Made by a program: the position numbers
Shown: positions 18,001 through 24,000 of the stretch, in pieces
Numbering within the stretch: position 1 is the stretch's first letter
How the letters are laid out: each line of letters starts with the position of its first letter
From: a virus
Taxonomy: Duplodnaviria; Heunggongvirae; Uroviricota; Caudoviricetes
Reading direction: 5' to 3' (one strand)
DNA: 33,085 nt
Virus record (IMG/VR): IMGVR_UViG_2740892233_000020

Positions 18001-21000
18001 TTTTTCAATCAGTGAATGTGCGTAAAGTGCATTATTAACGTTCGCTGACGCCATGTAATAACGCCCGTTGTAAAGAATTGCTGTGCCGGGTTTAACGTCC
18101 TCGCGAGAAACTAATGCGGTTCCGTAGTGAGGTTTGAGCATGACAAATCCTCCGGTTAATTAATCCAGATATTTAATTTAATCCCCGATATGTGGTCGGG
18201 GATGGGGTTAATTAAAGATTTACGTTGAAACCAAAGCGGGAAGACTTTTCTGATGTACGGGAAATATCCAGCAATTTACGGCGCATTTCTTCCGTCAGAT
18301 GCTTGAAGGCGTTAAATTCGGCGACAGCGGCGTCAACGTTATAGCCTTTGCTGTGTAGCTCATTGAGGATGCGCATAGTTGGGCTTGGCATATCGAAGAG
18401 CACGGAAGCATCAAGGCTGATAACCTTGCGATCAACATAGTTCATCGTGGCGTAGGGGTGATGCTCTGAAAACCACGACAAAGGGAAATTGATATTCATC
18501 GCAGGAGAAGACAGGGCCAGTTGTTTCTGTTCCCATAGTTGTTTTTCCATGCGATCGAATTCAGCAATGTAGGCTTCCTTGAATGCAGCTGCTTTTTTGC
18601 CGGTGAAGCCCATCACCAGAAAAACGAAGCCGTTTTTGGTGATTTGGTACATTGGGCGTTGTTCGCCTTTGGCGTCGGTGTAGGTAACGTCCTCAAAATT
18701 GAGGGCGTTAAATTTCTCTGAGCATTCAATATTTGCAATGGCGCGCAATACGTTATCGTGTCGCTTGCAAAAATATTCGGCAACGGCAAAGGACGTAGTA
18801 ACAGCGCGACCATTGGAAATGGTGATTTCAGGTTGAGAAAGGACTGGGATAGTAGCCATAATGGCAGCCTCCTTGATTGGTGATTGATAACCACCGCTGG
18901 AGGTAGCAAGCTCGCTGGCGGTGGACTGTACAGGGTTGCTACAACTGGCAATCAAGGGAACCAGCCCGACCGAAGTCGGCCCCATACAGCCCACCATTGA
19001 TAAGATGTGCGTGTATGTCGATACAAAAAAAGACGCTGGCGCGTCTGTATCGCCTCGATTGTCAGCGGGGTAGCAATCCCGACACCCGTTTTATGAGGTG
19101 TTCGCCAAATATAGCCCCGACATCACACGCAGTCAATACCGTTCTTTCTCAGAAACGCTTTGGCGGTGCCGCCTGCACCCCAAAACATTCCCTGTATTGG
19201 TCAGCGCCAACTTCCTGCCAGTGTTGCCCGTTCTCACGCCGTTCTCGCTCTCGCGCGGGGATACTCTCTCATCGACCGGATCGCACCCGATGATACAGCA
19301 CGTTTACGTGTAGGGGTCTAAACAGGTCATTGACGCTGTAAAGCTCCAGATTGTTAAAGAGCATTTTGCGGCGGGTTAAGTCGCGCCGTACGACTGATTT
19401 ATGTAGCCCTGTGTAAGGGCGCGATGTTTCTGGCTTGAAATAAATATAACTTGCGGTGATTTTCATGTAAATACCGTTGGTGCTTTTTAAGGGCGAGAAA
19501 TTATTACTTAACTGATTTTTAAAGTGATTTATTTTTTAAGGGGGCAGATAACAGGAGGGGATATGCAAAGAAAAACCCGGCGCATGGGCCGGGCTATTTA
19601 TCTGGTCCTGTTCTCATTCAGTAGAGTAGGGGCCAAGAAATCGCACTCCGTTGAAGTGAATAAGATGAGAAGGTGCATCAGCCACCCATACCTCTGTTTC
19701 CCATGCGATTTCACCAAGATATCGCCCCATGATGGAGCGATTTGGAAAAGCGGTCACATAGACAAGTCCGGCTGTTGATCCGGCAAACAGCCTGGCAAGC
19801 TCAGCATGCCGCTTCCCATCAACCGGTCCATGACTGGTGACAGACTCAACCAGTAGCAGCCAGTTTTTCGCAGTAAAATGTAGCACCACATCTGGCATTT
19901 TACCGTGTGAATCCACATCAACACCTAGCCCGGCCAGCAGTGGAGCGTCGAAGTAGCCCCACTTTTCGCCAGTGTCGCCAGCATAGACCAGCACGCTACC
20001 CGGAGCAAAACGTGGGGCGAAGTCCTCTATTATGGCACGGATAAGTTCGCTGTGCTCGCCGGGACTGAGGGTTATTTGCTGGCCCGCAGCAATTTCAACA
20101 GGGATACGATTCTGTTCGCGCTCCTTAGCATAGCGGGTAACCAGCGTTTCACGCTCGGCTAAATAGGTTGCAAGGCTATCGTGCCATGCCGGGCTGCCGA
20201 AAGTGCGTAGCATGGACAGAGCAGCAGGTTCGATCTGATAAACAGCCTTCGGGCTGTTCACTGGGCGATCGGGCTTGTCCGGATTGTAGAGGGCTACTCC
20301 AGCAGCGCAGAACTGATGCATAGACTGGCGGCGGAATGTCTCACGAGTATTGGGTGCGTAGACCTTGCCGTAGTGCTCCCGAACCCAATTCATGATTGGT
20401 GTAATGCCCACAAGCGGATTTTCCGCGTCGGCCCATGCTTTTCCCGGTGTGAGGTTCAGGAGTGCCAGCAAACACAAAGCAGAACGCTCATTCTGCTGCG
20501 CTCTGGGCAGGCCTAAGGATGCTATAATTTGCTGAGCGGCCTCAATATAATCATTTTGGTTGTTCATGCAGTCAGAGCTCCTAGCTTAGCGTCAATATGT
20601 TCTTGCGTGAGAGTTTCTTGTTGCATAGCCCACTTGCCAAGCTCTATCAGAGTGTCACGGCTTGGGTACTTAATCATCTTGAGGTCGGTTGCATTGACCT
20701 GTGTATGCCCGTTGAAGCGACGGAAATACTTATCCACTGCGGTAGTGTTCAGGAACACGGCCAAGCCACGGGCCAGCGCCTCGGGTAACCCATGTTTGTT
20801 CTCATGAAACACGTTCATGTGATTTTCAAATCCCAACACTGAATACTCACTGAAGGTAGCAGGATCAACGACGCTTGCTACCACTCGGCGCTTTTCCTCC
20901 TTCGACGAGAAACGACGCACCACACAATAAAAACCGTTCGGGTAAAGCCACTTTTCTGTCTCGTCGTTGCGCATGATTGCGTTGGGTTTCTTCAAACCTT

Positions 21001-24000
21001 CCACAGGCCAGACAGTGCTACTCATACTCAAATGGCTCGGGTAGATCAGGGGAACAGTTCCTTCTTCTGGCATGCTGCGCAAATGAGCTTTCAGTCGGAA
21101 ATCAACTATCGGTCCGGTCGATACCTTCACGCCAATATCAGCCAGCGAACATTGTACGGCAGATGATAACTCAATGGTGCTTTTCTCGAGCGTGGTCGGC
21201 ACATGAATAAACCGCTCCGAATCGTCCGGGTACACAATCTGGTCAAATGGGTGTTCGTAGGTGACTAGGTCAAAAAAGCTATCATCGGTCGAAGTTGTGA
21301 CTGTAACAGCCTCCTGACGGCCTCCACGCTCCAGGCGGATGATAATATTTTCCTGCAACACATCGTCATCCCTGAAAGCTTTGCTACGTGATTCGAACAA
21401 ATGAATATGGCGGATTGCTGCCCGCTCAAGTATGAAATTACGGAACGGACGGTAATACGGTCCGTTGCAGAAACTACGTGGGATTATGGCCACTATCTGC
21501 CCGCCAGGTGCAACCTCACCTACAGCCAGTGCAACAAAGGCGGAATACAGATTTACCGTCTCGATACCGACAGTGCGAAGAGCCTGCCGGTGGGCTGACT
21601 GGCTATTGATCTTCTTGTAAGGCGGATTAAGTATTGCATGGGTATAACCTCGATCCTGTAGACCTTCGGCGGTTGCCAGCTCAATATAATCCCCTTCGAT
21701 GATGCGGGGCGTCACTCTCCTGTACCCGGTTAAGTGCTTCGCAAGGTGACCACACAGCTTTTTGTCGATTTCGTAGGCTGTTGCCTCGACAGACTCAAAG
21801 CCAAACTCGCCAACCAGCCAACGGTCGAGGAAGGCGCAAGACAGTGCGCCTAAACCAGCGCCTGCGTCCAGTAGACGGCAAGTTTTCATTGTGCTCGGTG
21901 GAAACAAGGAGGCCATAAAACGGGCCACGCCAGAAGGCGTCATGAACTGGCCGAACTCTGCTTTGTGTTTACGCGCGGTACGGGGAGACAGCTCGCGACG
22001 CACGCTGTCTGCGACGTCTAGCTTTTGAAGCATAACTAATCCTCTTTACGTGGCATGATGATGCCAACGTGCTTTTGACATCCTCCACATTCTTCAGGCG
22101 TGAAGGATGTCAAATCACTCTGTGAGCTCAATCAAAAGTCTCATCATTCCACTGCGATTTGATGACCTTTCCGACAAACTGGCAGTTTTCGTTACACTCA
22201 ATCATGTCGAATCGTGGGTTGAGCGGCTCCAGGTACGCTTTACCGCTCTCACGAATGAATCGTTTGAAGGTAAATTCATCGCCGTTCATTCGGGCCACGC
22301 AAAAATCGCCATCCTCGATTTCCCGTTCAGGGTCAACGAGTATCAGCATACCTTCAGGGAAGCTGGGTTTACCACCCTGCGGTGCGGTCATTGAATGCCC
22401 CTTGACCTCCAGCCAGAACGACCTGTCACTGGCTTTTGTGGTGGTGGAGATCCATTTAATCGCATCTTTTGCGGTGTACGAAATATCATCCATTGAGAAT
22501 GCGCCAGCTTGTACGCAGGAGAGTAACGGATATTCGTAAGCGGGGACACGAGTTAATGGCTCTTCAATTGCGAGCGCCATTTCTGCAATAGATTTTGCCA
22601 GGCTGGGACTGAAATCTCCGACCTTTACATTCAGTATCTTAGCAAGCTGTGCTGCGTGGCTGGCATTTATGGCGTTGATGCCAGCCATTAGCTGATTAAC
22701 AGCGCTTTGGGTAACACCTAATTCATAGGCTAATGATTCCTGCGACAGGCCTAACTCTTTCTTTTTAGCGTTAAAAATACTTTTCAGACGCTTGGCGTCT
22801 TCCAGTTGCTCAGGGGTTAACGGTTTCTTTTTCATGTTCATACCATATCACCTTTGGTTATATGTAATGAAATATCTGCGGTGTTGACATTTTAATAACT
22901 GTGCGTAATGATATGGGCATTTTGAAGGAGTCAGTTATGGCGATGAAAAAAGAGACCCTGGCTGATTACGTATACAGGTTCGGCCAAAAGAAAGCCGCTA
23001 AGGACTTTGGCGTGGCGCAGAGTGCAATCAGTAAAGCGCTTCTCGTCGGACGAGAAATATACGTCAAAACCTTTGATGACGGCACAGTTGAGGCGGAAGA
23101 GGTTCGTCCGTTCCCTGCGTTCGTAAGAGGCGATGATTAATCCTGGACACACAGCCCATCGGAGGTGTGAGTGAACAGGCAAATCAAAACGGTTATGCCC
23201 GAGCAGTACTGTGATGCTGATCGGGACTGGATACAGGAGCAATTGTTACAGCTAGACCCGACCACCCGGGTAAAAATTGCAGCAGAGTACGCGAGAGTGT
23301 ACCAGGAAGAGTGGGACAAGGAGCCTGTATCGTTCAGGAAGGGCAACAGGGCAAGACGGAGCGCCAACACCCGGTTACGGGTGTATGTCCAGAAGTACGC
23401 GAGAGCCAGCCGTGGCTGGATGCTTTCGCCAGTAGCGGTACGGAAGTTTCCCCCGACACCATGATGGCGGTTAGTTGCGCTAGAGATAATTTCAAGTGCA
23501 ACTAATTTCCTGAAAGGAAGCGAGGAGGGGGTAAGGGGGTGGAGTCGTTGGTAAGGCCTGTATCCCTTGGCCTAGGCCAGAAGGCAGGTACATAGGTTAG
23601 GTAGATCACTGTATAAGCGCGCGATAGTTTCTGGTGAAATGATTATCGAGCTAACTATTGAGTGATAAACTATGTCGGCAGCAACCAAATCGGCACTGAT
23701 CCGTACACTGAGCACTGTACCACTGAGAACAGAGGAGCGTTACAGCTTTCTGGCTGATGTTGTAACGATCCTTGAGTCACAGGGGATGCATGTGGCAAGC
23801 AATGTCACAGTAAGAATCGATGGCAGAAATTTCCGTGTTGATATTCTCGCAACAGCAAAAACTGGTGGGAGTGTGGCTATCGAGATCGATCGTAGCTCTC
23901 CGCGACCCCGCTCAGTCATGAAATTGCGTGAATTGGCACGTCGTGGCACTGAAGGCTTTGTGTTGCTTCGAATGCCAAAGAAACTGACCAGTTATAGCGA

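Follow-up and report, generated by a model that had tools for sequence, protein, structure and literature searches.

Restriction–modification (R-M) systems of the PstI/BsuBI family, which recognise CTGCAG, and the related SdaI system, which recognises the 8-bp sequence CCTGCAGG, all pair a gamma-class N6-adenine methylase with an endonuclease that consists of a winged helix–turn–helix (wHTH) and a nuclease domain, the latter with a P-D...E core that lacks the canonical lysine. EcoGIII, a Type IIP system with these same features, was characterised by Fang et al. 2012 (Nat Biotechnol), as credited in PMC6602927 and PMC3893438, which also state that it methylates and cleaves CTGCAG, with the methylation specificity CTGC(m6A)G, where m6A is N6-methyladenine. 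Here we analyse 33,085 nt of a virus of the Caudoviricetes (IMG/VR record IMGVR_UViG_2740892233_000020; this entire stretch is called the window below), in which a lambda-like cI repressor gene is immediately followed, in the same orientation, by adjacent genes for a DNA methyltransferase (M) and a restriction endonuclease (R). We consider it close to certain that this M-R pair is EcoGIII, carried as lysogenic-conversion cargo in the immunity region of a lambdoid prophage that converts its host to production of Shiga toxin 2a (Stx2a). Window positions 19400–23200, which comprise R, M, cI and cro, are 100% identical over 3801 nt to phages P13374, phiON-2011 and relatives, and equally so to E. 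coli O104:H4 chromosomes, including those of C227-11 (NZ_CP011331.1) and 2011C-3493. The records of P13374 and phiON-2011 label the pair as a BsuBI/PstI-type methylase and restriction enzyme and the repressor as cI. There is no difference from the O104:H4 system inside the locus; in the rest of the window, colinearity with the O104:H4 prophage is lost leftwards of approximately 12.7 kb.

EcoGIII is thus already known and experimentally characterised, i.e. the finding is right but not new. In an O145:H28 strain with the same prophage genes, 98.8% of 2,902 CTGCAG sites carry m6A, whereas no CTGCAG site is modified in a sister O145 strain that does not have the EcoGIII genes (PMC3893438). The same paper gives 100% identity between the O145 R protein and the enzyme of C227-11, which is biochemically active. 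When cloned into recipients, EcoGIII reduces conjugative transfer of pESBL unless the donor also carries EcoGIII (PMC4288162). According to PMC6602927, it guards against lambda-like phages but not against T4, and its loss changes the expression of approximately 1,900 genes and affects growth. That a reading of the bare sequence, the first-pass annotation, had picked out, in the immunity region of a prophage, a Type II R-M system that is complete is of value as a confirmation, with its coordinates right to within a few bases. The details added here are incremental and concern the borders of the cassette, its plasmid-type origin with a resolvase remnant, the conserved ATGA overlap, the co-deletion of M and R, and the sharing of the cassette between two immunity types.

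Profile searches assigned both proteins to R-M families. The 489-aa product of M contains the motifs which had been read as those of a gamma-class enzyme, i.e. GQFMTP (residues 28–33), LLDAGAGLGAL (54–64) and ILNPPYKK (134–141, with NPPY at 136–139), in the gamma-class order X-I-IV; it matches the Eco57I methylase domain of Pfam (E 3e-9) and, over residues 1–489, the PADLOC model MTase_II PDLC03227 (E 5e-248). The 317-aa product of R, whose identity as a PstI/BsuBI-family nuclease had been deduced from context, is matched over its full length by the PADLOC REase_II model (E 1.6e-168) and consists of an N-terminal winged HTH domain (approximately residues 7–143; PF17728, E 1.2e-54, 184.4 bits) and a C-terminal PD-(D/E)XK-type nuclease domain (approximately 155–307; PF06616, E 4.6e-61, 205.2 bits), both far above the Pfam gathering threshold of 27 bits. 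Thus, next to the endonuclease gene there is a methyltransferase gene whose product has S-adenosylmethionine-binding and NPPY motifs in gamma order, as befits a two-gene Type II system.

Structural comparison, which the first-pass annotation had proposed as a check, points the same way and retrieved a nuclease fold. With phmmer, R residues 8–315 match the crystal structure of SdaI (PDB 2ixs; E 1.2e-77), and a Foldseek search of the PDB with an AlphaFold model of R (predicted local distance difference test score, pLDDT, 92.4; alignment input of 33 diverse homologues) gave 2ixs_A as the sole significant match (E 7.7e-34), with approximately 41% identity between R and SdaI in the structure alignment. 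The low global template modelling score (TM-score) of 0.49 is attributed to what, in the model, appears to be a different orientation of the two domains relative to each other.

The organization of the two genes has been maintained over large phylogenetic distances. The PstI genes are divergently transcribed, whereas here M and then R are arranged in tandem, with a tetranucleotide, ATGA, that holds both the stop codon of M and the start codon of R, as had been noted in the first reading; this arrangement suggests translational coupling of R to M. With one genome per species counted, at least 598 relatives were obtained, and among the best 80 of these, which come from Chloroflexota, Verrucomicrobiota, Cyanobacteria, Acidobacteriota, Nitrospirota, Bacillota and many Pseudomonadota, the endonuclease is 69–94% identical to R.EcoGIII. 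At the loci of these 80 relatives, M directly precedes R in all 78 other-phyla loci whose upstream DNA is present, and the genes overlap by 4 nt at 65 of 75 measurable junctions, 64 of which read ATGA. The tandem is also often fused, since many of the representative relatives are single chains of approximately 840 aa that comprise M and R, with the R domain at approximately residues 530–840 (PADLOC PDLC03359; relatives such as P0121, P0124 and P0125). Such an M-R fusion has been remarked upon for the SdaI subfamily (PMC2441816). A cI homologue within 5 kb of the cassette was found at none of the 80 loci from other species, so that linkage to cI seems confined, in the collections searched, to Stx-type (Oslovirus-like) phages of E. 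coli and Shigella. The features of the locus are collected in the table.

Table. Coordinates of the M-R cassette and of the surrounding immunity region in the window.
Feature	Position	Strand	Description
Candidate pL, sigma-70-like promoter	19443..19471	-	TTTACA-17-TATATT; approximately 100 nt beyond the terminator
Candidate oL, lambda-like	19461..19445	-	AATCACCGCAAGTTATA; inside the pL candidate; single site, 3 mismatches to the half-site pattern
Intrinsic terminator of the putative cI-M-R unit	19564..19595	-	GC-rich hairpin 19595..19574 (8-bp stem, 6 G-C pairs), then T-run TTTTTCTTT
Mobile M-R cassette	19606..22074	-	2.47 kb; segment 84.7% identical to plasmid-borne copies (blastn, Aeromonas caviae pKAM376_4)
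R gene (R.EcoGIII)	19614..20567	-	317-aa ORF; BsuBI/PstI-family Type IIP restriction endonuclease
ATGA overlap of M stop and R start	20564..20567	-	R start 20567-20565, M stop 20566-20564
M gene (M.EcoGIII)	20564..22033	-	489-aa gamma-class N6-adenine DNA methyltransferase
Shine-Dalgarno sequence of R	20582-20578	-	AGGAG, 10 nt ahead of the start codon of R
Shine-Dalgarno sequence of M	22045-22040	-	AGAGGA, inside the 40-nt leader upstream of M
Hairpin/palindrome	22074..22114	-	16-bp stem; follows the cI stop codon, ahead of the cassette; repeat search
Lambda-like cI	22128..22841	-	237 aa; HTH_3 and Peptidase_S24 (Pfam); upstream of M-R
oR operator, lambda-like	22846-22862		TATCACCTTTGGTTATA; in the oR/pR region 22846..22912
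Rightward sigma-70-like promoter	22884-22912	+	Reads into cro
cro	22913 (annotated start) to 23140	+	Lambda Cro family, PF09048, E 4.8e-34; faces cI

The M-R unit is also found outside of phages, which allowed its borders to be defined. On broad-host-range plasmids of Aeromonas, Pseudomonas, Citrobacter, Morganella and E. coli it is present with approximately 84–85% nucleotide identity over the full 2.47 kb and with the same gene order and overlap as in the phage cassette. The left edge of the shared segment is 8 nt past the R stop codon, and its right edge coincides with a deletion endpoint in phage PhiR12_3. On pKAM376_4, a resolvase gene ends 9 nt ahead of M, which indicates that the cassette is promoter-less on plasmids as well, and the plasmid alignment identifies the 40-nt leader of M in the window (22034–22073) as a remnant of the 3' end of that resolvase gene. 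Thus, resolvase-linked plasmid cassettes follow the resolvase gene, whereas the phage copy follows cI and keeps approximately 40 nt of the resolvase 3' end. A resolvase-M-R arrangement likewise exists in Serratia nevei, and close copies on small IncP-type and other plasmids adjoin resolvase and par genes, a neighbourhood that is a typical stability region.

From these data and the activities published for identical proteins, a working scheme can be drawn in which M.EcoGIII methylates the adenine N6 of CTGCAG in the DNA of both host and prophage. R.EcoGIII, using its N-terminal winged helix for recognition and its C-terminal PD...E nuclease for cleavage, cuts unmethylated CTGCAG of incoming DNA and in this way shields the lysogen from heterologous phages and plasmids. 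With M first and R coupled to it by the ATGA overlap, the anatomy suggests that the methylase is always made first and that nuclease synthesis, being tied to it, is delayed and limited in comparison, and progeny phages of the lysogen would be pre-modified. The cassette itself, presumably promoter-less, sits between the hairpin at the 3' end of cI and the terminator, the place that rexAB takes in lambda. As with other Type II systems, post-segregational killing by EcoGIII probably helps to maintain the prophage as well.

Several observations weigh against this scheme or fail to strengthen it. The catalytic lysine of R cannot be assigned by sequence, with position 243 being occupied by valine. 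CTGCAG is not avoided in the window (9 sites versus 9.3 expected), which fits self-methylation but adds no independent support. And the strong 16-bp hairpin between cI and M could attenuate or process the predicted cI-M-R transcript. As a separate observation on the distribution of sites, the window contains a CTGCAG-free stretch of 13.9 kb (12039–25930), which is weakly unusual (P approximately 0.02 by a rough estimate).

One question is what EcoGIII has been selected for. An addiction-type stabilising role seems likely, since plasmid copies adjoin par and resolvase genes and the sole natural loss observed takes out M together with most of R. This loss occurred in PhiR12_3, a homoimmune phage (cI 97.5% identical) without window positions 19931–22073, i.e. 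all of M and R residues 1–212, which leaves a 105-codon remnant of R; M was never seen to be lost alone. In PhiR12_3, the missing segment is replaced by 160 nt of unrelated sequence (L003 4286–4445). Going further, selfish addiction and prophage stabilisation combined with epigenetic re-programming of the host, rather than defence against phages, might be the main selected role. Residual R would then cut under-methylated chromosomes after loss of the prophage, as the joint deletion of M and the N-terminal two-thirds of R and the resolvase and par genes near the cassette (on plasmids; in Serratia a resolvase gene) would lead one to expect, and CTGCAG methylation would alter host transcription, in line with the large transcriptome change reported upon EcoGIII loss. 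On the other hand, experiments have shown that EcoGIII restricts both lambda-like phages and conjugating plasmids (PMC6602927 and PMC4288162), and we regard it as somewhat unlikely that addiction comes first. Addiction and defence are not mutually exclusive, however, and the question is one of emphasis rather than of another mechanism.

A second question is how the cassette is transcribed. M and R are most probably transcribed together with cI from the repressor-maintenance promoter (pRM), because the 94-nt spacer between cI and M (22034–22127) contains neither a promoter nor a T-run terminator, the plasmid-borne cassette appears promoter-less and a terminator follows R. For the minus strand of this spacer, a consensus scan found no sigma-70-like promoter and no T-run terminator. 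The spacer RNA is predicted to fold with -33.7 kcal/mol (z -3.96). The stem of the hairpin is near-perfect but is not followed by a T-run, so that the hairpin does not qualify as an intrinsic terminator. Since PhiR12_3, which is without the cassette, retains the 22074–22114 stem with a different loop, the hairpin belongs to the phage backbone rather than to the cassette. RNA processing, stabilisation, attenuation or protein binding are candidate roles for it.

Alternatively, M and R might be transcribed from a promoter of their own and independently of cI, in which case the likeness to rexAB would be merely positional. The stable hairpin that parts cI from M would be compatible with such autonomy, and a weak match to a promoter (TTGGCA-17-GAGGAT) can be seen by eye in the 40-nt leader of the cassette. 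Yet its presumed -10 element, GAGGAT, overlaps the Shine-Dalgarno sequence of M and was not picked up by the consensus scan, the plasmid copies that begin 9 nt after the upstream gene speak for a promoter-less cassette, and a hairpin without a T-run would not terminate transcription from cI. Altogether, an independent promoter appears improbable.

That R is inactive and M an orphan methylase is, finally, so unlikely as to be almost negligible: the canonical lysine is indeed absent (Val243, Thr244) and Lys251 of SdaI is not conserved in R.EcoGIII, but the lysine is missing or migrated in the whole active SdaI/PstI subfamily (PMC2441816), P225, D226 and E241 are conserved and R as a whole keeps 70–91% identity across phyla, the ORF is undisrupted and its product shows 100% identity to the enzyme described as biochemically active in PMC3893438, and the existing restriction data effectively refute an inactive R already.

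The first-pass annotation had seen no catalytic motif in the 317-aa protein; a variant PD-(D/E)XK core, P225-D226...E241, emerges upon alignment of homologues, with valine in the position of the canonical lysine (243) and threonine at 244. In the alignment of the 33 homologues (33–57% identity), P225, D226, R253, W294, H304 and G307 show no variation, and for E241 conservation is 90% or more. These homologues came from a 50%-representative search, as a closer search gave only near-identical E. coli copies. A displaced or migrated catalytic lysine is described as a trait of the active SdaI subfamily (PMC2441816).

The EcoGIII cassette is common to two immunity types. Phage Lyz12581Vzw contains window positions 19595–22539, i.e. 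both cassette genes plus the C-terminal half of cI, with 95% identity, but the DNA-binding domain of its cI, its operator region and its cro all differ from those of the window; it is thus heteroimmune and yet carries the cassette. A joint reading of these data, which we put forward tentatively as a possibility that falls short of being probable, is that a promoter-less cassette rides the cI maintenance transcript, that the two heteroimmune lineages are cross-protected and that the hairpin sets the ratio of cI to R-M. If so, restriction and modification levels would follow repressor autoregulation and be shut off upon induction, virions of two heteroimmune Stx-phage lineages with the same cassette would be protected against restriction in each other's lysogens, and the 22074–22114 hairpin would be a processing or attenuation element.

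Beyond R, approximately 160 nt including the terminator are replaced in Lyz12581Vzw by approximately 1.2 kb (L002 955–1805), with genes for a SocA-family (antitoxin-like) and a hypothetical protein that are co-directional with M-R. The position right after the R-M cassette is thus a second variable cargo slot.

With respect to gene order, the M-R pair fills the slot that in lambda holds rexA and rexB, as was recognised in the first reading: cI, M, R, a terminator and a candidate pL/oL follow each other, with M and R co-directional with cI. Lambda rexA-rexB share with the pair a location flanked by cI and the leftward early promoter, the orientation, the terminator at the end and a lysogen-expressed protection from superinfecting phages. 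However, they act by abortive infection and membrane depolarisation, whereas EcoGIII restricts unmethylated DNA, and they are co-transcribed with cI, which for EcoGIII is the probable mode of expression. Homology to RexA or RexB was not found, with Pfam, NCBIfam and PADLOC giving only R-M families. The likeness to rexAB is therefore positional and functional only.

The claim of the first-pass annotation that the pair has its own terminator in front of a pL/oL region was borne out in part. A hairpin with a T-run is present, but it lies outside of the plasmid-shared segment, which ends at 19606, and homology to Lyz12581Vzw stops at 19595 with other sequence beyond, which makes it more probable that the terminator is part of the phage backbone rather than of the cassette. 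Farther on, the sequence at 19443–19471 is suggestive of pL/oL, with a promoter-like and an operator-like element overlapping each other; no 15-mer with up to 3 mismatches was convincingly common to oR and the region left of the terminator. A 65-aa ORF (19269–19466, minus strand) that starts in the -35 hexamer of the pL candidate is unannotated in phage records and is probably not a gene.

Past the terminator, no lambda N-type pL operon follows. Beyond the candidate pL, Rfam detects isrK (19026..19101) and a C4 antisense RNA (18914..19001), and these are followed by a Rha/Ash-family (Rha/antirepressor) gene. Besides this isrK and C4 pair (18914–19101, minus strand), the window has a second one at 9966–10154 (plus strand), all above the Rfam gathering threshold and each pair upstream of a Rha/antirepressor-type gene, an arrangement that indicates antisense control of the antirepressor genes, similar to that of P1 immI, in each of the two early regions. 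On the other side of the cassette, the longest ORF of cro starts at a GTG codon at 22901, upstream of the annotated start. The N-terminal domain of cI, which by eye we take to resemble that of lambda cI, may serve as a lead only.

Of the 98 phage records found to contain the EcoGIII locus, 74 cover 80% or more of the query; the locus is also present in 147 of 5,426 complete E. coli genomes, where it is always chromosomal. Since it is carried in Stx2a phages of O104:H4, O157, O145, O111, O103 and Shigella sonnei, EcoGIII is of medical relevance. It should not be confused with the prophage rRNA methyltransferase described in Nucleic Acids Research (NAR) in 2023 (phages PA2 and PA8), a candidate for M that we rejected as a different gene, coding for an MT-A70 enzyme with a DPPW motif; when the window was aligned to the O104:H4 prophage region that carries this PA2/PA8-type MT-A70 gene, the gene found no match.

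At the larger scale, the window is a mosaic of two parts (1–12717 and 12718–33085). Approximately 1068–12707 matches an SfV/mEp460-like lambdoid early region with 96% identity and has its own S24 repressor gene (8015..8707, minus strand), cro, Rha and a replication gene, with a truncated Dam-like methylase gene at the junction, whereas the sequence from 12718 onwards matches the O104:H4-type Stx2a phage. Among the best-matching complete E. coli genomes and phage records listed, none spans the 12.7-kb junction, which could reflect a recombinant or tandem prophage or else an assembly join.

The late region carries cargo upstream of and around stx2 (28604–31076), i.e. four tRNA genes (Met-CAT and three for Arg), two STnc100 and the anti-sRNAs (antagonists of small RNAs) AsxR and AgvB; the tRNA gene read here as Met-CAT is listed by RefSeq as Ile in the O104:H4 record. 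The gene stx2B is located at 30473..30742, and stx2A is probably within the ORF that ends at 30461. Compared with the O104:H4 prophage, the window has one tRNA-Arg/STnc100 repeat unit more.

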